Of a DNA stretch of 53,650 nucleotides, positions 2,722 to 31,008 are shown piece by piece. The stretch is from a virus (lineage: Duplodnaviria; Caudoviricetes). Position 1 is the stretch's first letter, and each line of letters opens with the position of its first letter. The notes under the pieces are model-generated. The model did no database searches and had not been told where the DNA came from. It was given only the letters and a program-made list of their open reading frames with translations. The stretch is from positions 1 to 53,650 of IMG/VR virus record IMGVR_UViG_3300031707_000026; one strand, written 5' to 3'. Position numbers and translations under genes: made by a program.

Positions 2722-3681
2722 ATGCCAGCATCGCAGGGCTTTTATGGCATCCCTCATTCCGAAACATTGGGACTCTGGTGGTTTCGCAAGCAAATAACTA
2801 TCGCTCCCACTAGCGATGGGGCTCTAACAAACTATGTGATGAGGCTATATATCAATCGCTCTGTTGGTGTAGATTCTGGAAACAATGTTTATGTAGGTAC
2901 AAAATGTCTCGCTAACTATAACGATATTCGCTTCACGACCTCAGATGGCAAAACCCCTCTCTGTTATTGGATAGAGACCTACAGTGACAGTCAGGCCATG
3001 GTTTGGGTTCGATTTGATTCTGTAAAAGCCTCCCCAGACAATACAATTTTCTACTTGTACTATGGGAATGTCAATGCCGCTGCCTATAGTAGTGGTGTCA
3101 AGACCTTTCTCGTGTTCGATGACTTCAACGGTCCAGCGTTGAATACAACCCTCTGGACTCAACGAGGTGGCGTTGCTACCTTCTCGGGCAGTACCCTTAT
3201 CTTAACAGGCAACAACACCACCGAATCGAAGTTGATGGCAAACCTTGGGGGCGCAAAAAACTTTGTTTTGAGAACAAGAGGAAAGATAAATGCACTTTAT
3301 CGGTTGGGAGTTGCTGTAGAGACAGATATTACTAATGGTAGAGGGTATTGTTACTTAATAAGGGACACTGAATTAAAATTCTACTTCTTAGATGATATGG
3401 TAGCCTGGGGAAGTACTTACGATGCAGCAGCAGTAGATACCTATTATCTTATGGAGATTTGGCATGATGGCACAAACATAAAAGCCACCATAAATGATGG
3501 AACAGTTCGTAGTTGGGCACGAACAGGTAGGAATGGGACTCTCGCTCTTTCTTCATCCCCGAACACAAGTGTCGCTACATTTGACTGGGCCTTTATTCGG
3601 TACTTGTCCCCAACTGAGCCAACTTGGAGCGCTTGGGGGAATGAGGATGCCTCGACTGCTGACTATCAGGAGACAACATGA
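2722..3681 (+). CDS. DUF2341-like domain plus lectin-like domain tail protein
   Basis: W-FRKQITI...DIRFT.SDG.T.L.YWIE...VWV...YLYYGN..A...FDDF pattern typical of DUF2341. Confidence 0.7.
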   Translation: MPASQGFYGIPHSETLGLWWFRKQITIAPTSDGALTNYVMRLYINRSVGVDSGNNVYVGTKCLANYNDIRFTTSDGKTPLCYWIETYSDSQAMVWVRFDSVKASPDNTIFYLYYGNVNAAAYSSGVKTFLVFDDFNGPALNTTLWTQRGGVATFSGSTLILTGNNTTESKLMANLGGAKNFVLRTRGKINALYRLGVAVETDITNGRGYCYLIRDTELKFYFLDDMVAWGSTYDAAAVDTYYLMEIWHDGTNIKATINDGTVRSWARTGRNGTLALSSSPNTSVATFDWAFIRYLSPTEPTWSAWGNEDASTADYQETT

Positions 3682-12799: not shown

Positions 12800-12821
12800 C
12801 TTATTTGTAGAGAGGAGTGTT

Positions 12822-13010
12822 ATGCAGACTCAAGATAAGAGTTCAGGCACAAAATGGTGGCTAAAGATTGTAGGTCCTCCTGATCAGCTAGTTAAAGTCT
12901 CGAGAAGAGTTCACGAGCCAGTCAAGCCTGCATCGAACAATCAACCTGCACACGTTGATGTACCAGCGAGAAAAGTTGGCAGAATCCCGTTCTTTCAGAA
13001 GGAGGACTAG
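12822..13010 (+). CDS. Small hypothetical protein heading the deazaguanine cassette
   Basis: GAGGAG RBS; stop abuts the GNAT start. Confidence 0.5.
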   Translation: MQTQDKSSGTKWWLKIVGPPDQLVKVSRRVHEPVKPASNNQPAHVDVPARKVGRIPFFQKED

Positions 13011-13670
13011 ATGAGTAATTTCAGAATTCGATTTGCTACACTCAAGGATCTTGACGAGATCCAGAATCTCTTCAATCACCCAGACATCATTGCTGGGCTT
13101 GGTGGCTTCACAATGAGAGATCAAATTCGAGACTGCATCAAGGTCCGCCCATCTCTTTGGGTTGCAGATCTCGATGATAAGATTGTCGGGGCTCACATGT
13201 TCGGGGGTCGCCCACAAAGTCATATGATCAAGCTTGGACATGTTGGAGTTCTTCCCGAGTATCGCCGCCAGCGAATCGAGACATCATTGTACTTCACAGC
13301 AGTAGCACAAGCTGTCCTCGAGGGTCGTCGATTGATTGAAGATACTATCGTAGGCGACAACGAAGCTCAGAAGATTGCTCTGCCGACGATGGGATTTCGC
13401 CTTGCTGGAGAGCTCGTTCATCGAACTGGCTCAGAGAAGTCGATCTTCTTGTATCAGCTCTCTCTACTCTGGGACAAGGCTTGGAGTCTGATCTACTCGC
13501 GATGTCCCCCAGATCTCTGGATCGAACTTAAGACGAACTCATACACATCAGATCTTTGGGAGAAGAACATGACGCTCTATACTTCGAAGAACAGCAAAGC
13601 TTCAACAATTGTTGTATTGATACGCAAGTTTCTTGAAGGAAGCCCAAATGTTCAAATCTTCAGAGAATAG
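13011..13670 (+). CDS. GNAT-family N-acyltransferase
   Basis: IRFATLKDLDEI start, VADLDDKIVG, HVGVLPEYRRQRI (motif A-like), DNEAQ..LPTMGF (motif B-like). Confidence 0.8.
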   Translation: MSNFRIRFATLKDLDEIQNLFNHPDIIAGLGGFTMRDQIRDCIKVRPSLWVADLDDKIVGAHMFGGRPQSHMIKLGHVGVLPEYRRQRIETSLYFTAVAQAVLEGRRLIEDTIVGDNEAQKIALPTMGFRLAGELVHRTGSEKSIFLYQLSLLWDKAWSLIYSRCPPDLWIELKTNSYTSDLWEKNMTLYTSKNSKASTIVVLIRKFLEGSPNVQIFRE

Positions 13671-14082
13671 TTCTTTTGAAGCTCTAGGTAAGACAGTTCG
13701 GGGTGCTCGCAAGCAGCTTGAGACATTCCCAACACCCAAAGGTGTTACTCATGTAACCATGACGAGTCACGAATTTACTTCTGTTTGCCCGATTACAGGA
13801 CAACCAGACTTCGGGTCTGTCGAGATCTCTTATAACCCGCGCGACAAGTGTCTAGAGTCTAAGAGTTTGAAACTATACTTGATGACATTTCGTGAAGCAG
13901 GAACGTTTTGTGAGGCTCTAGCAGCAGAGATTGCTCGAGACGTTCAAGACGTTCTTGATGCGACGAGTGTGAAAGTTACAGTCACACAAGTCCCTCGAGG
14001 AGGGATTGAGATTAGAGCAGAAGCTGTTGCGTGGGCACCCAAGTTGAAAGGAGGTGGCTGTAACTTACCAATGCAGGGCTAG
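13648..14082 (+). CDS. queF: PreQ0 nitrile reductase QueF (unimodular)
   Basis: EFTSVCPITGQPDFG (catalytic C and D), QueF signature ESKSLKLYL, PRGGI. Confidence 0.92.
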   Translation: MFKSSENSSFEALGKTVRGARKQLETFPTPKGVTHVTMTSHEFTSVCPITGQPDFGSVEISYNPRDKCLESKSLKLYLMTFREAGTFCEALAAEIARDVQDVLDATSVKVTVTQVPRGGIEIRAEAVAWAPKLKGGGCNLPMQG

Positions 14083-14088
14083 TCCCCC

Positions 14089-14123
14089 AGATGGTCGAAG
14101 CAACCCATTTCAAACAAAAGGAG
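14089..14123 (+). ncRNA. preQ1-I riboswitch-like aptamer in the yhhQ leader
   Basis: AGATGG-TCGAAGCAAC-CCATTT stem-loop, then CAAACAAAA running into the SD GGAG; same layout as the T. tengcongensis-type preQ1-I aptamer. Confidence 0.5.
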
Positions 14124-14130
14124 TATCATA

Positions 14131-14769
14131 ATGTTTCGCAAACGCTTCTCATTCCTGTTCGTCGTCTTGGTCGCTCTGTCTTCAGTAGCCTTGATCGTGT
14201 CCAACATCATAGCTGGAAAGCTCTGGCAAGCACCTTTCGGGTTGATCTTTACTACAGCTGTCTGGCTGTTCCCGATCGTCTACATCCTGAACGATGTGAT
14301 CCCAGAATGTTATGGCTTGAAGACAGCTCAGAAAGTTATCTTCACAGCCTTTGGGTTGAATGCCCTGGCTGTTCTATTCTTCTACATCTGCTTGTGGCTT
14401 CCAGCTCCAGTCTTCTGGCAGAATCAAGCAGCCTTTCAGACAGTCTTGGGATTTACCGTTCGACTCTTGATTGCTTCGTTTGCTGGGTACCTGGCCGGCT
14501 CTAACTTGAACGTCTGGATCATGGTAACTATCAAGAAGCTAACTCACGAGAAGTACTTGTGGGTTCGAACGATTACTTCGACGATCTTCGGCGAGTACTT
14601 GGACACCTTGATCTTCGCATCCATCGCCTTCTATGGGACGATGCCACTTTCAGCTCTAGGATCCTTGATTCTCTCGATGGGAGCTTTCAAGATCCTCTAC
14701 GAAGTCTGTGCTACCCCATTGACATACATCGTTGTTAACTGGGTCAAGAAAGTCGAGAAAGAAACATGA
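14131..14769 (+). CDS. yhhQ: Queuosine-precursor (preQ0/preQ1) transporter, YhhQ/VUT family
   Basis: SNIIAGK, FPIVYILNDVIPECYG, ASFAGYLAG, LWVRTITST..GEYLDT.IF..IAFYG. Confidence 0.9.
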   Translation: MFRKRFSFLFVVLVALSSVALIVSNIIAGKLWQAPFGLIFTTAVWLFPIVYILNDVIPECYGLKTAQKVIFTAFGLNALAVLFFYICLWLPAPVFWQNQAAFQTVLGFTVRLLIASFAGYLAGSNLNVWIMVTIKKLTHEKYLWVRTITSTIFGEYLDTLIFASIAFYGTMPLSALGSLILSMGAFKILYEVCATPLTYIVVNWVKKVEKET

Positions 14770-15143
14770 TTGAGACACGAATCTGTAAAGAATTTACATT
14801 CGAAGCTTCTCATCAACTCCCCAATCACAAAGGGAAGTGCAAGAACCTTCATGGGCACTCGTATCGAGTTCAAGTCGAACTCTCAGGAGAGATCAACTTA
14901 GTAGAGGGAGCCTCTGATGAAGGGATGATCACAGACTTCGGAGATCTCTCAGAGATCGTCAAGACTGAAGTTCTCGATCGATTTGATCATCATCACTTGA
15001 ATGATCTGATCGTAGCTGTCCCGACAGTAGAGATTCTAGCAATGATCATCTTCAAGATCATCCGAAGAAAGACATCGAAAGTCTCCCGAGTTCGTATCTA
15101 TGAGACAGCTACATCGTATGCAGAGGTAGTTGATGTCGAATAG
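14766..15143 (+). CDS. queD: 6-carboxytetrahydropterin synthase QueD
   Basis: FEASHQL, CKNLHGHSY, DFGDL, DHHHLND, PTVE, ETATS. Confidence 0.93.
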   Translation: MIETRICKEFTFEASHQLPNHKGKCKNLHGHSYRVQVELSGEINLVEGASDEGMITDFGDLSEIVKTEVLDRFDHHHLNDLIVAVPTVEILAMIIFKIIRRKTSKVSRVRIYETATSYAEVVDVE

Positions 15144-15816
15144 CTTTCCTGTCGTCGAGATCTTTGGGCCTACTCTTCAAGGAGAAGGCCCTCAGATCGG
15201 CCTCAGATCAACATTTGTTCGATTTGCTGGCTGCGATCTTCGCTGTACATGGTGTGATTCGATGCATGCTGTCTCGTCTAATCCAAGAACGAAGATGCTC
15301 TCAATTGAAGAGATTCTATCGCGTATTCGATCTCTTCTTGAAGTCGAGTGGGTCGTCCTGACAGGAGGAAACCCTCTATTATATGACTTGAGTGATCTCG
15401 TGTCTCGTCTTCAATCGGGAGGGTATCGAGTAGCTGTTGAAACTCAAGGAACACTCTGGAAGCCTTGGATAACTTGGGTCGACTGTCTCGTTGTCTCTCC
15501 TAAACCCAAGTGGTCTCAGCCTGAAGCATATCAACAACGAACATGCGTAGATCATCGATTCGAACATCTTCGAAAAAGCGAGTTCTACAAGATCGTTGTC
15601 TTCGAAGAAAGAGATCTCGATTTTGCTGAACAGTTCTCTGAAGTCGGAGATCATCTCTATCTATCATGTGGGACTCTCCCAACAGACTCTTCAAGTGATG
15701 TTCTTCAGAGACTTCGAGATCTGACGAAGAGATCTTTTGATCGTCCTGCTCTTCGAAGTGCCTATTTTCTCCCACAGCTTCATGTTCTTCTGTGGGGACA
15801 CAAGCGAGGTGTGTAG
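15133..15816 (+). CDS. queE: 7-carboxy-7-deazaguanine synthase QueE (radical SAM)
   Basis: EIFGPTLQGEG, FVRFAGCDLRCTWCDS, LTGGNP, ETQG, SPKP, PQLH. Confidence 0.93.
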   Translation: MSNSFPVVEIFGPTLQGEGPQIGLRSTFVRFAGCDLRCTWCDSMHAVSSNPRTKMLSIEEILSRIRSLLEVEWVVLTGGNPLLYDLSDLVSRLQSGGYRVAVETQGTLWKPWITWVDCLVVSPKPKWSQPEAYQQRTCVDHRFEHLRKSEFYKIVVFEERDLDFAEQFSEVGDHLYLSCGTLPTDSSSDVLQRLRDLTKRSFDRPALRSAYFLPQLHVLLWGHKRGV

Positions 15817-15817
15817 A

Positions 15818-16375
15818 ATGTCTGATCGACTTGAGACTCTCATTGAGAGCCTTCTGATAGAATCTGGAGATGACTATACTCGAGAAGGGCTCAAAGATAC
15901 TCCTCGAAGAGTCGCTGCTGCCTATCGAGAGATGTGGGCAGGGTATGGTCAAGATCCTGCAGCAATCCTTCGAACTTTCGATTCTGAAGGACATCACGAC
16001 TTGATCTCAGTCACTCAGATTCCTTTCTATTCGACATGCGAGCATCATTTGTTGCCGTTCTTCGGAGTAGCTCATATTGGGTACATCCCTGAAGACAAGA
16101 TCATCGGGATCTCAAAAATTGCTCGAGTCGTCGAAATCTTTGCTAGACGACTTCAAGTCCAAGAGAGACTGACAGCGCAAGTTGCTGATACGTTGTTCGA
16201 AGAGCCTCTTGGGCCTCAAGGAGTCATTGTTGTGCTTCAAGCTGAACATCTGTGCATGGCAATGCGAGGCATTCTGAAGCCTGGGACGATTACAACAACA
16301 TCAGCAATTCGAGGAATCTTTGTCGATGATGTCGATCTTCGAGCTGAATTCTTATCTTTGATTCAAAAGAGGTGA
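15818..16375 (+). CDS. folE: GTP cyclohydrolase I
   Basis: REGLKDTPRRVA, STCEHHLLPFFG, GISKIAR, RRLQVQERLT, HLCMAMRG. Confidence 0.95.
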   Translation: MSDRLETLIESLLIESGDDYTREGLKDTPRRVAAAYREMWAGYGQDPAAILRTFDSEGHHDLISVTQIPFYSTCEHHLLPFFGVAHIGYIPEDKIIGISKIARVVEIFARRLQVQERLTAQVADTLFEEPLGPQGVIVVLQAEHLCMAMRGILKPGTITTTSAIRGIFVDDVDLRAEFLSLIQKR

Positions 16376-17040
16376 CTATGAGTGCTGTCTTACTACTTTC
16401 TGGAGGGCTCGACTCAGGAACTCTCTTGACGAAACTCTATCACGAAAGCATCGATGTCATCCCTCTATCTATCGACTATGGCCAGAGGCACAGAGGTGCT
16501 GAGGGAGAGGCTGCTCAACATCTATCAGACTTCTTCAGAGTACCCCTGAAAACTTTATCTCTCGAAGATGTCTTCTCTTTTATTCCCATGGGAGCTCTCT
16601 TGAGTACCACACCCATGCCTCATCTGTCGTATCAAGAACTGGCAGAAGAGGTTGGCCCTTCCCCGACGTATGTTCCCTTCCGGAATGCAGTCTTGATTTC
16701 AGCTGCAGTCTCGATAGCTCTTCAAATCGAAGCAGACTCAGTCTACATTGCTACTCATGCTGAAGATGCTCGTAATTGGGCCTACCCTGATTGTACCCCT
16801 GAGTTTAACGGCTCCATGGCGGCAGCAGTCTATGTTGGGACGTACTCGAAGGCCCGGCTGTTCACTCCCTTCCAGTGGATGATGAAGCGAGACATCGTTA
16901 AGCTCGGCCACGAGCTGAATGCTCCGTTCCACTTAATGTGGTCTTGCTACGAAGGAGATCTGACTCCTTGTAGAAAATGTCCCACATGCATAGAAAGAGC
17001 AGAAGCCTTTCGAGCAAATGGTCTTAAAGACCCTATGTAA
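16372..17040 (+). CDS. queC: 7-cyano-7-deazaguanine synthase QueC
   Basis: LSGGLDS, YGQRH, TYVPFRN, YPDC, WSCY...CRKCPTC; no glutamine amidotransferase fusion. Confidence 0.95.
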   Translation: MTMSAVLLLSGGLDSGTLLTKLYHESIDVIPLSIDYGQRHRGAEGEAAQHLSDFFRVPLKTLSLEDVFSFIPMGALLSTTPMPHLSYQELAEEVGPSPTYVPFRNAVLISAAVSIALQIEADSVYIATHAEDARNWAYPDCTPEFNGSMAAAVYVGTYSKARLFTPFQWMMKRDIVKLGHELNAPFHLMWSCYEGDLTPCRKCPTCIERAEAFRANGLKDPM

Positions 17041-17074
17041 GTAAATCGACTCGCAGGCTAGACCTGCGAGCCTC

Positions 17075-17150
17075 GGGCCCGTAGTTCAACTGGGAGAACC
17101 ACTTGTTGCCTCCCGGCAAGTGATAGAGTGTTCGAGTCCTCTCGGGTCCA
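17075..17150 (+). tRNA. Aberrant tRNA-like gene (pseudo-tRNA, anticodon not assignable)
   Basis: GGGCCCG/CGGGTCC-A acceptor, TAGTTC..GAAC D-arm, GTTCGAGTC T-loop; anticodon arm CACTTG/CAAGTG has an 11-nt loop and the T-stem has a bulge. Confidence 0.6.
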
Positions 17151-17237: not shown

Positions 17238-17513
17238 ATGCCAAGCTTTGTTGAAGTGGTCCAAGAAGAAATTCAAGAGTGTCAAAAGATCATCCAGATT
17301 CACAGTGAAGCTGGAGAGAATGCTGTTGTTCCCATCGAGCAGATGTTTCCTCACGGGATTTCTGATGTAACCTACACGATCTTTATGAAGGCTGCTCGAG
17401 CAATCGGGTACGAGATCTCGGGAGACGAGGATCGAGTTCGTGAGGAAGTTCGCGACATAGTAAATTACTGTGGGTTTCTCTTGGCACTTCTGAGAAAGAG
17501 AGACTGGTCATGA
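17238..17513 (+). CDS. Nucleotide-modification-associated domain 1 (Nmad1/DUF1599)-like protein
   Basis: K..R...EEVRDIVNY helical motif; AAGGAG RBS; inside the modification locus. Confidence 0.55.
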   Translation: MPSFVEVVQEEIQECQKIIQIHSEAGENAVVPIEQMFPHGISDVTYTIFMKAARAIGYEISGDEDRVREEVRDIVNYCGFLLALLRKRDWS

Positions 17514-18196
17514 CGCTTTCAATTCCCTCAACTGTTATTCGAGAGCTCAAGCATCTTGTGCTACTCTCCCCCTCTCGATTTCCTGTTCGAGTCATCTTCG
17601 AAGAGGTACCCGAAGATCTCTTCCCGTCTAAAGCTGTCAAAGTAGGTCCCTCGATCTATCGCAAGTTCATCTGCGAAGATTTGTGTAGCGTATGTTGTCG
17701 ATCCTTCGGCCCTCTTACTCTAGACTATCTCCCGATAGAGTCTGAGTGGTTGAAGCTCGATCCACAAACTCAATCAATGTTCGAAGAAAAGTCTATTTGG
17801 GTTGACGAGACCAAGAAGGTATTCTACTCTCTCGTCAAATCTAAAGAGTACTGTCCTCTTGCATCGTCGAGAGGGTGTAGCGTGTGGCCTCGAAATCCCT
17901 TAGCATGCGCAGCCTCGGCACGTATTCAGATCTCGAAATACCTCGAGACGACGATGATCTTGAAGAAGGGATTCTCTCGAGAGTGGCGATGGGCTGAACG
18001 AGCTCAATGCGAGTATCTTGACATTCTCGAGTGGGATGCTTCAGAACTCGGGAAGGATCTTCAGATTCTTGATCGTTATGAAGCTTGGGCGAAGTACTTT
18101 AATATCCCTACAATCGTCTCTGAGATTTGTACGAACTTGACAGCATCGTACCTTCTCGAGAAGATCATACCGTTCCAGTGTAATTTTGAGGAGTAG
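17510..18196 (+). CDS. CxxxCxxCC Fe/Zn-chelating protein (YkgJ/FliB-like; candidate DpdM-like preQ1 methyltransferase)
   Basis: CEDLCSVCC...CPLASSRGCSVWPRNPLAC; immediately upstream of the dpdA-like gene. Confidence 0.55.
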   Translation: MTLSIPSTVIRELKHLVLLSPSRFPVRVIFEEVPEDLFPSKAVKVGPSIYRKFICEDLCSVCCRSFGPLTLDYLPIESEWLKLDPQTQSMFEEKSIWVDETKKVFYSLVKSKEYCPLASSRGCSVWPRNPLACAASARIQISKYLETTMILKKGFSREWRWAERAQCEYLDILEWDASELGKDLQILDRYEAWAKYFNIPTIVSEICTNLTASYLLEKIIPFQCNFEE

Positions 18197-18199
18197 TGC

Positions 18200-19084
18200 A
18201 TGAAACCAACAATCCTTCCCCCGATCCCAAATCTTAGCTTGGCTGTAGGTCGACAGCATCACTTGGTTCTATCTCACTTGCTTCAAAGCCCGAGATACGA
18301 AAACTTTTATATTACTGAATCTTGGAATGGTGCTTACATCATTCTAGACAACTCGGCACACGAGAAGAAGCATGGGGAGTCTCCAGAAATTCTCTTGCAG
18401 CAGGCTGAAGAGATCAGAGCTTCTGAGATCGTCTGTCCTGATCACTTATTCGATCGAGCAGACACTGTTCGTCGTACTCGAGAAGCTCTTCAATTCTTTC
18501 TTGTGAATGAAGCGAGGCTGCGACAGATGACTCCAATTCCTCGTCTGATGCTTGTACCTCAAGGATCTTCTCCTGCTGAGTTCTCGTCTTGTTTACAAGA
18601 GCTGGTTCTCGAGTTCCTTGCTATCCAAAAAAAGTCTGGAGAATCATCGACTTTCTTCCCTACAATTGGAGTCTCAAAAGACTACGAGATGTGGGAAGGA
18701 GGGTTGCATCATCTGCTGAGACATGTCATCTTTCCAGTAGCTGCAACGCTTTCTGATCCTGAGATTCATCTTCTTGGGTGGGGGAGAGATCTTTGGGCTC
18801 TCGAGTCGATCGTCGAAGATTTTGGAGATCTCATCAGATCAATCGACTCAGCTAAACCTATCGTCTATGGGATTGCAGGACTTCGTCTTGACCCAAACGT
18901 TCCTGCACCAGAGTATCCTAGGCGATCTAAGATCTACTTCACCACTTCTATCTCAAGCGAGAATCTCGAGATCGTTCGAGAGAACATCAAGGTGTTTGAT
19001 ACTATTGTCTCGGGAGGCGCTAGTGATACCCAACTACGAACCCTGCCTAAAATGTCCACTCAAGGATTGCCCTCCAGTCCCTAG
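18200..19084 (+). CDS. dpdA: DpdA/TGT-like DNA guanine transglycosylase
   Basis: TIM-barrel TGT motifs ILDNS, CPD, VPQG, IHLLG, SIDS; adjacent to a full preQ0/preQ1 pathway and the polymerase. Confidence 0.7.
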   Translation: MKPTILPPIPNLSLAVGRQHHLVLSHLLQSPRYENFYITESWNGAYIILDNSAHEKKHGESPEILLQQAEEIRASEIVCPDHLFDRADTVRRTREALQFFLVNEARLRQMTPIPRLMLVPQGSSPAEFSSCLQELVLEFLAIQKKSGESSTFFPTIGVSKDYEMWEGGLHHLLRHVIFPVAATLSDPEIHLLGWGRDLWALESIVEDFGDLIRSIDSAKPIVYGIAGLRLDPNVPAPEYPRRSKIYFTTSISSENLEIVRENIKVFDTIVSGGASDTQLRTLPKMSTQGLPSSP

Positions 19085-30780: not shown

Positions 30781-31008
30781 CTACTCGACATTAACCCACT
30801 TCATGCAAGTTTGCAAAAGGTGATTGTAGTCGCCGCTTGTCGCTTCGCCCATGAAGGCATCGCAGTCTTCCTTCGAGACGTCGTTGCTCTTCAAGGCCTT
30901 GGAAACCTTGCCCAAAACGAAGAAGGCGTTGCCGTCTTCGCCAGAAAGTTGGACGGTGATCTCGGGGAACTTGACAGCACCTGCGGTCGTACTTTGATTT
31001 GTCGTCAT
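30781..31008 (-). CDS. Small phage hypothetical protein (GEDGNAF motif)
   Basis: AGGAG RBS; VQLSGEDGNAFFVLG...SGDYNHLL. Confidence 0.65.
   Translation of the reverse strand: MTTNQSTTAGAVKFPEITVQLSGEDGNAFFVLGKVSKALKSNDVSKEDCDAFMGEATSGDYNHLLQTCMKWVNVE

Follow-up and report, generated by a model that had tools for sequence, protein, structure and literature searches.

The question raised by this locus is whether a phage governs its queuosine-precursor genes with a preQ1-I riboswitch, and whether the copy seen here could still work. The window analyzed is the whole stretch of 53,650 nucleotides, a virus contig with a completeness rating of 59%. An earlier note, made without database searches, had described a preQ1-I riboswitch-like leader at positions 14089–14123, directly upstream of yhhQ in what it called a phage DNA-modification operon. 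Reading the sequence confirmed the letters and coordinates of this element: a preQ1-I-like hairpin (14089–14110) is followed by an A-rich tail and GGAG, and then by the ATG of yhhQ (14131–14133). After the queF stop codon (14080–14082), the order in the spacer is UCCCCC, A-GATGG, TCGAAGCAAC, CCATT-T, CAAACAAAA, and GGAG. The parts of the element, the surrounding genes, and a group of comparable phage leaders are listed in Table 1.

Table 1. Coordinates of the yhhQ leader element, its gene block, and same-build leaders in other phages (positions of the window unless a record is named)
Feature	Coordinates	Strand	Basis or remark
GNAT acetyltransferase gene	13011–13670	+	Pfam
queF	13648..14082 (ORF 13633–14082)	+	Probable start ATG 13648; QueF Pfam 75 bits
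P1 5' strand AGAUGG	14089..14094	+	Core AUGG invariant in L097 and L196–L199
10-nt loop UCGAAGCAAC	14095..14104	+	Sequence reading; type II criterion; R1 alignment
Loop residues U6; C7; P2 5' strand G8–G11; A14–C15	14095; 14096; 14097–14100; 14103–14104	+	
P1 3' strand CCAUUU	14105..14110	+	Sequence reading, folding
A-rich tail CAAACAAAA, counterpart of L3	14111..14119	+	P2 3' strand, expected next, is absent
Shine-Dalgarno GGAGU of yhhQ	14120..14124	+	7 nt ahead of ATG
yhhQ (Vut_1, queuosine-precursor transporter family), led by the element	14131..14769	+	Pfam 152 bits
UGUUUCG, complement of loop CGAAGCA (14096–14102)	14132..14138	+	Possible, weakly supported displaced P2 3' strand
queD, queE, folE, queC	14766..17040	+	Pfam; overlapping or at most 2 nt apart, also relative to yhhQ
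Leader in L475	1426–1457 of record		
Leader in L476	1453–1489 of record		
Leader in L478	1422–1456 of record		
Leader in L480	1421–1456 of record		
Leader in L483	1424–1457 of record		

The genes that the element would control are of the queuosine-precursor type, with yhhQ directly downstream and queD, queE, folE, and queC behind it. The translation of queF contains the stretches CPITGQPDF and ESKSLKLY. The cistrons are tightly packed: the GNAT gene and queF overlap, yhhQ and queD share an ATGA, queD and queE overlap, and queE/folE and folE/queC are 1–2 nt apart. Among the junctions from queF through queC, only that of queF and yhhQ, with its 48-nt spacer, leaves more than 2 nt between cistrons. 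Because the reading frames overlap or nearly abut, translation of queD-queE-folE-queC could be coupled to that of yhhQ. No convincing promoter or terminator was found near the spacer; there were six promoter-like sites where 5.0 were expected, and none on the + strand of the spacer itself. The block sits in the replication module of the phage, with a helicase, an exonuclease, a Sak4-like protein, a DNA polymerase, and a primase. The description of the element as a yhhQ leader in a preQ0/preQ1 block thus holds. Support for the term DNA-modification operon was not found: a search with PF01702 gave no TGT/DpdA protein in the window or in the records of five relatives, two of which are rated complete.

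Several other features of the block were recorded. The GNAT gene overlaps the start of queF, its product had no PHROG match, and its synteny with queF and yhhQ is kept in the relatives described below (L097 and L196–L199). Acylation of preQ1 or of a related base at the aminomethyl group is a possible activity of the enzyme, on which a literature search found nothing. Two + strand ORFs between queC and the DNA polymerase gene (17510–18196, 228 aa; 18200–19084, 294 aa) had no Pfam, PHROG, or PDB-sequence match. Directly past the queC stop codon is a GC-rich hairpin of 11 pairs (17049–17072), which is terminator-like on the minus strand only. Also just past queC is a tRNA-like sequence (17075–17150, +) that scored 30.8 bits on RF00005, where the gathering score is 29; it was seen only in the local E-value scan and was missed by the whole-window gathering scan and by ARAGORN. 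Its anticodon loop is about 10 nt long, compared with 6 in the model, and its acceptor stem and T-loop look normal. A megablast search of 12800–17100 against the phage collection gave zero matches.

The hairpin was compared with the aptamer of T. tengcongensis, whose sequence had been quoted correctly in the earlier note; it is given in PMC10639078 (in excerpt) and is also present in one of our loci (L393). The window P1 has 6 bp when A14089-U14110 is counted, one of them a G.U pair, and its top pairs, G14094-C14105 and G14093-C14106, provide the G-C closure. U6, C7, and G11 are all present in the loop, and A14–C15, with C15 the specificity cytosine, form the "AC" ahead of the P1 3' strand that defines type II preQ1-I riboswitches (PMC11625349, in excerpt). 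The three loop bases that had been singled out before, U6, G11, and C15, were found at 14095, 14100, and 14104. Overall, the loop is the same as that of T. tengcongensis at eight of ten positions, and P1 is followed by an A-rich L3. P2 is what the window lacks: 14111–14123 contains neither a complement of GAAG nor a C two nucleotides before the GG. The tail is indeed without a CAA before the Shine-Dalgarno sequence, as had been noted, and leaves the G11-C30 pair without a partner at the canonical place.

Standard searches did not pick out the window element. RF00522 gave no match at the gathering threshold and none at E ≤ 10 in the 301 nt from 13950 to 14250. A search of all 53,650 bases at E ≤ 10, in which three candidates were scored, was likewise negative. 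The gathering score of this family is 39 bits, and by that score the window element falls outside it. Neither preQ1-II (RF01054) nor preQ1-III (RF02680) appeared in whole-Rfam scans of the window and of 13950–14250 at E ≤ 10. The aptamers of both of these classes are longer than the 48-nt spacer. The predicted fold of the leader was no more stable than those of shuffled sequences (z = +0.44; 133 of 200 shuffles were equally stable), and the hairpin alone, at −3.0 kcal/mol, was equaled by 48 of 200. These results are what would be expected if the likeness to preQ1-I were due to chance, that is, if the element were an ordinary weak hairpin followed by an A-rich ribosome-binding region: a hairpin of 5–6 bp is expected in a 48-nt spacer, its stability is no better than that of shuffles, and an A-rich run before GGAG is common. 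A descriptor of the hairpin (stem of at least 4 bp and a TCGNAG-N(1–4)-AC loop) gave a different result, matching only about four independent other places on both strands of 1.28 Mb of loci, a count that excludes the loci collected with that same motif. The element is therefore more than chance by descriptor and by conservation (see below), and not by thermodynamics or Rfam.

The Rfam threshold was also examined with bacterial sequences. RF00522 at E ≤ 0.001 matched 14 of the 151 genomes sampled, and only 1 of the 14 passed the 39-bit gathering score. The matched loci are L310, L311, and 12 others from Clostridia. The Tte-like aptamers L310 and L311, at 31.2 and 30.4 bits, were below 39, and clear gene-leading aptamers score 28–33 bits. 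Therefore, the threshold misses many short members of preQ1-I.

A pattern derived from the loop recovered at least 120 loci from genome contigs, at least 62 of them with a P1 of 4 bp or more and at least 52 distinct ones with a P1 of 5 bp or more; among the matches listed, the aptamers came from Thermoanaerobacter, Moorella, Syntrophomonadaceae, and others. At loop position 9 the 52 distinct aptamers among the matches listed had C (46), A (4), or T (2), so that the A of the window and the U of its relative L097 both occur in natural aptamers. A covariance model, R1, was made from 20 bacterial Tte-like aptamers of equal length among the matches listed. This model, whose loop columns favor the window by construction because the training pattern was taken from the window's own loop letters, matched 14088–14123 over its full length with 20.4 bits (E 1.4e-4), at the price of a 2-nt deletion in the tail, and matched L097 with 19.6 bits. 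The next match in the same 87 kb had 9.3 bits. In a further 790 kb the best non-riboswitch matches had 12.9 and 14.4 bits, the latter being the top across about 875 kb and the level reached by tail-only background matches, since the tail columns of R1 resemble any A-rich leader with AAGGAG. Five whole bacterial genomes gave a handful of 17- to 19-bit matches per 12 Mb. Held-out natural aptamers scored 35–58 bits, and by comparison the window is an outlier.

A second model, R2, was made from phage leaders with no loop pattern; at E ≤ 10 it found neither the window element nor that of L097, so that R2 and RF00522 both miss the window, as the chance explanation would have it. R2 did match 30891–30925 (+) with 16.4 bits (E 0.35), an AAGG/CCUU hairpin with an AAAC tail in a region without long ORFs. 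Because no que gene is nearby, this match is probably due to chance.

Other leaders of bacterial origin came to light in these searches. A Paracoccaceae MAG (L458:750–785) has AAUGG-UCGCAGCCUAC-CCAUU-AAAAA-CAAGGAA ahead of queF; its P1 matches that of L097, and its L3 is just 5 nt long. Second preQ1-I-like hairpins with the loop UAGCAGGAAAC and the tail ...AAAACUGUGG were found at L334:3308–3338, L421:312–342, and L347:5648–5700. These hairpins are built differently; the same genomes also hold a Tte-like aptamer, and in L347 the two are in tandem.

The strongest evidence came from relatives with the same arrangement of GNAT gene, queF, spacer, and yhhQ. Searches with YhhQ identified one close metagenome contig, L097 (YhhQ 97%, QueF 90%, and GNAT 94% identical), and a search with the GNAT protein identified four viral contigs, L196–L199, with the same gene order (GNAT 77%, QueF 70%, and YhhQ 63% identical). 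The four are two near-identical pairs and thus represent two distinct sequences. Their spacer reads UAUGG-UCGUAGACAAC-CCAU-CCAAAA-CUAC-UUAAAGGAG and forms a complete H-type pseudoknot, in which AUGG and CCAU make P1 and the loop GUAG pairs with the CUAC that stands right after the A-tract. RF00522 gave a single match in each of the four records, at exactly that hairpin, with 11.9 bits (E 0.13–0.23). Applied to five other phage yhhQ records, it gave one unrelated match of 11.2 bits, elsewhere and on the opposite strand; the score of 11.9 bits alone is therefore at chance level, a point in favor of the chance explanation, and it is the position of the matches that counts. The earlier note had proposed to judge the element by an RF00522 match at relaxed thresholds and by conservation upstream of related yhhQ genes. 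RF00522 at E ≤ 10 misses the window, but related yhhQ genes do have the element conserved upstream of them, and in L196–L199 the match lies there.

Conservation of the hairpin was compared with that of the flanking genes. In the hairpin core, ATGGTCG.AG..CAACCCAT, the window and L196 were identical at 17 of 18 positions, with one 1-nt indel (an inserted A), whereas only 81 of the 193 four-fold sites of the flanking genes (42%) were identical; the binomial probability of this difference is 4e-6. The comparison with L097 was not significant (4 changes in 20 hairpin positions vs 30% four-fold divergence; P 0.23). Those changes converted the G.U pair at the base of P1 to A-U and affected loop positions 9, 12, and 13. 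At 15 hairpin positions (the P1 core, U6, C7, G8, A10, G11, A14, and C15), chosen partly post hoc, L097 does not differ from the window (P 0.005 at the four-fold divergence), which hints at continued selection. The clade is known from three independent sequences, and because the P1 core is invariant across these three lineages, there is zero covariation of P1 within the clade.

A protein or RNase site would account equally well for conservation of this kind, which is of sequence and not of pairing, so that the hairpin could have another function, as a site of RNA processing or stability or as a site for a phage protein, and its aptamer likeness could be convergent or vestigial. Its place in a spacer inside an operon, where no convincing promoter or terminator is nearby, would suit such a role. 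Nothing positive points to it, however, and in solved preQ1-I structures the bases conserved here are the ones that touch the ligand or form its pocket (PMC11625349, in excerpt); we regard this explanation as very unlikely.

Rfam found nothing at E ≤ 10 in the L097 spacer, in a test that is blunt because E is multiplied by 4227 families, and nothing relevant at the other relatives' loci (L001–L015 at gathering; L007, L001, L014, L013, and L016 at E ≤ 10). A tblastn search with YhhQ against phages gave 18 records, every one below 60% identity; among phages, Streptococcus virus MS1 has yhhQ within a que operon, with no annotation of an element in the spacer. Motif patterns gave 19 unrelated coding matches in viral contigs, and a stricter pattern gave only the four contigs already known; in genome contigs the stricter pattern had 26 matches, 25 by chance and 1 at the bacterial queF leader L458. 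A scan with the GNAT alignment added only two loci, both without que genes. A hairpin of this kind is absent at the phage yhhQ loci L208, L212/213, L216, L217, L218, and L220.

Two leaders of other build were seen at other yhhQ genes. The leader of a yhhQ-queF-queC block in L215 (640–712), identical in sequence in L221, reads GCGCGG-UCACCGAAC-CCGCGC-CCAUUCCAAAAC-GGAGG; its loop CCG could pair with a CGG over the ribosome-binding site, and it had no RF00522, R1, or R2 match. Upstream of yhhQ in L007/L008 (about 2900–3000) is a hairpin, AGAGAG...CUCUCU, with a 20-nt loop containing CCUUU. Past a long A-rich tract, the ribosome-binding site contains AAAGG, the complement of this CCUUU, and the whole may be a pseudoknot leader; Rfam had nothing for it at E ≤ 10.

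A scan with the QueF alignment identified low-GC phage contigs with a queF-queC-queD-queE operon and leaders of the same build (Table 1). In this L475 group, P1 is AAAG/CUUU or AAG/CUU, the loop is U-N-(CUAG or CAAG)-..-AAC, and an A-tract leads to CUAG or CUUG abutting GGAGG. Two of the records are rated 100% complete. RF00522 touched the motif in two of the five, at 12–13 bits, and all five are below the Rfam threshold. These five distinct leaders, L196, and one metagenome example (A9) were aligned for analysis of covariation. Over P1 and P2, 98% of the cells were paired and four of the seven pairs changed on both sides. The covariation score was 0.367, compared with 0.101 in shuffled alignments (none of 500 reached it) and at most 0.156 in slid controls. 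Seven sequences make a small alignment, but it is enough to show that covarying pseudoknots of the preQ1-I type exist in phages and that the L196 element is one of them.

Taken together, these results make it very unlikely that the resemblance of the window element to preQ1-I is accidental. Its core is kept at 17 of 18 positions over near-saturated divergence, the pseudoknot at the same place in L196 belongs to a covarying set and is the sole RF00522 match in its record, the loop agrees with T. tengcongensis at eight of ten positions, and the gene context is that expected for such a riboswitch. The proposed relation to aptamers of the T. tengcongensis kind is thus supported. Observed here are the sequence and its conservation, together with the complete pseudoknot of the relatives and the covariation in other phage leaders; from these we conclude that the element is very probably a diverged homologue of the preQ1-I type II aptamer that has been kept in a phage clade as a leader of yhhQ.

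The remaining question was what the missing strand means for the window copy. P2 is present in L196–L199 (GUAG/CUAC) and, with covariation, in the L475 group; in L097 (CAAGG) it is arguable. The tails end in AAAA-CUAC- in L196, AAAA-CUAG-GAGG in the L475 group, …ACA-CAAGGAG in L097, and …AAAA-CAAGG in the bacterial set. In the window the A-tract runs directly into GGAG, and 3–4 nt of the P2 3' strand are gone. A slip of assembly as the source of the short tail was ruled out, because 14012–14250 recurs without a difference in X3, a contig from another study's run. Contigs from four sediment runs were compared in all: X3 is identical, X4 begins only at 14132, X2 contributes a divergent piece of 35 nt, and X5 contributes nothing; no population variants were seen at the leader in these contigs.

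The mechanism that we infer for an intact leader involves ligand binding, a direction of regulation, and translational coupling. As in the rest of the family, preQ1 or preQ0 would pair with the cytosine just ahead of the P1 3' strand, the A-rich tail would occupy the P1 groove, and the 5' half of the loop would pair with a strand abutting or overlapping the Shine-Dalgarno sequence. The closed H-type pseudoknot would lower initiation of yhhQ translation, and the repression would probably spread to queD-queE-folE-queC via the overlapping frames. The outcome would be end-product feedback on the import and synthesis of preQ0. Absence of the P2 3' strand removes both the partner of G11 and the strand that would tie the ribosome-binding site into the pseudoknot. 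Because this strand is gone and GGAG follows the A-tract without a break, we tentatively favor a weakened or constitutively "on" leader, or a relic, as the state of the window copy.

Alternatively, the window copy could still be an OFF switch that senses preQ1 or preQ0 through a non-canonical P2. We consider this possible but somewhat doubtful. The lack of change in L097 at the 15 hairpin positions named above (P 0.005, with the same post hoc element of choice) speaks for it, and it could take two forms. In the first, loop C7–A13 (14096–14102) would pair with UGUUUCG (14132–14138) and bury the start codon, with the Shine-Dalgarno sequence inside a long L3. Folding predicts these 7 bp for the window leader in both the MFE and the centroid structure. 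L097 keeps six of the seven pairs (A-U has become U-A, G.U has become G-C, and C-G has become U.G), and the resulting CGUAGU/GCUACG is its MFE. However, when the downstream 60 nt were shuffled, 1192 of 20,000 sequences gave at least 7 bp and 11,730 of 20,000 reached the 6 bp of L097. By our reasoning, a Leu/Phe codon followed by a C-initial codon supplies three of the pairs for free, and most of the apparent covariation follows from this; compatibility at one informative site in three lineages has a probability by chance of about 0.25 by hand estimate. Covariation between codon 2 and loop position 9 was likewise largely rejected, since most of it can be put down to constraints on Leu/Phe codons. 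We know of no preQ1-I riboswitch with an L3 of 21–25 nt.

In the second form, G11 would pair with C14115 after an L3 of 5 nt, and P2 would be irregular and purine-rich, as in T. tengcongensis. The bacterial queF leader L458 does have a 5-nt L3, and an A at position 9, with which the C9-G33 pair cannot form, occurs in the natural aptamers L384 and L394. Against this form, it needs two extra A's between the C and the GG, and its L3 is shorter than that of all 52 pattern-found natural aptamers among the matches listed.

If the displaced helix of the first form is taken at face value, the clade would hold three arrangements: a P2 of Watson-Crick pairs immediately before the ribosome-binding site in L196, a Tte-like P2 over the ribosome-binding site in L097, and a P2 3' strand on the start codon and codons 2–3 in the window. 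We think this series unlikely to be real. The same low probability applies to its third member, in which the ribosome-binding site would be looped out in an L3 of about 21 nt. To our knowledge, a P2 on the start codon with a looped-out ribosome-binding site is an architecture without precedent in the preQ1-I class. The broader proposal, that phages own a lineage of miniature preQ1-I riboswitches that quickly evolve new expression platforms, is speculative and, in our judgment, improbable. Were the displaced P2 real, the supply of bases for DNA hypermodification would be under direct metabolite feedback during infection.

At least two phage groups have preQ1-I-type pseudoknots, one before queF-queC-queD-queE and the other between queF and yhhQ. 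Should preQ1 bind to these RNAs, phages would be using an RNA of about 35 nt, one that lies under the Rfam threshold, to sense a modified base and so adjust its supply. The window, L097, and L196 form a natural series on how much P2 an aptamer requires. How the riboswitch class works is understood no differently as a result, and the window copy may be dead. In a literature search of main texts, no phage 7-deazaguanine gene cluster was reported to contain a preQ1 riboswitch, and the word riboswitch does not occur in the main text of PMC6884629 (Hutinet et al. 2019), whose supplements may list contexts of phage yhhQ and queF.

The closest known system is the translational preQ1-I type II riboswitch of T. 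tengcongensis (PDB 3Q50, cited in PMC11625349, in excerpt), which has a 5-bp, G-C-closed P1. The window element shares with it the 10-nt loop UCG-N-AG-NN-AC, the "AC" with the specificity C before the P1 3' strand, an A/C-rich L3, and a ribosome-binding site directly downstream. In T. tengcongensis the ceiling of the pocket is the C7.G11-C30 triple, and only two bases of the Shine-Dalgarno sequence are buried (PMC11625349, in excerpt). In contrast, the window is without C30-A31-A32 and therefore has no counterpart of this ceiling or of the burial of the first two Shine-Dalgarno bases. Its P1 is AU-rich and weak (−3.0 vs −5.9 kcal/mol), and the element lies between two phage cistrons rather than in a bacterial 5' leader.

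The preQ1-I type II riboswitches of the B. subtilis type (queCDEF) belong to the same family, and in Bacillaceae such leaders control the pair queF and yhhQ. As a positive control, Bacillaceae queF-yhhQ loci were scanned with RF00522, which gave 39–42 bits in 11 of 20, with the aptamer upstream of queF. Unlike the window element, these aptamers pass the Rfam threshold and have a regular Watson-Crick P2 (CAUAG/CUAUG); L196–L199 and the L475 group are closer to them in this respect than the window is. In 45 loci of the Bacillaceae type, the queF-yhhQ spacer is usually about 15–20 nt and contains only a ribosome-binding site, and proteins of the window are 35–51% identical to those of Bacillaceae loci. 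The suggestion that the phage element is host-derived was not borne out: it is common to diverged phages of one clade, and the Bacillaceae riboswitch stands upstream of queF. Because the phage element is absent from that bacterial position, a recent capture of the operon is unsupported.

Phage genomes seldom contain riboswitches, according to a 2017 survey that, in excerpt, names no preQ1 example (PMC5473149). Like the reported phage riboswitches, the c-di-GMP-I riboswitches of C. difficile prophages and the glutamine aptamers of cyanophages, the element described here would be a metabolite-sensing RNA carried by a virus, and it differs from them in class and ligand.
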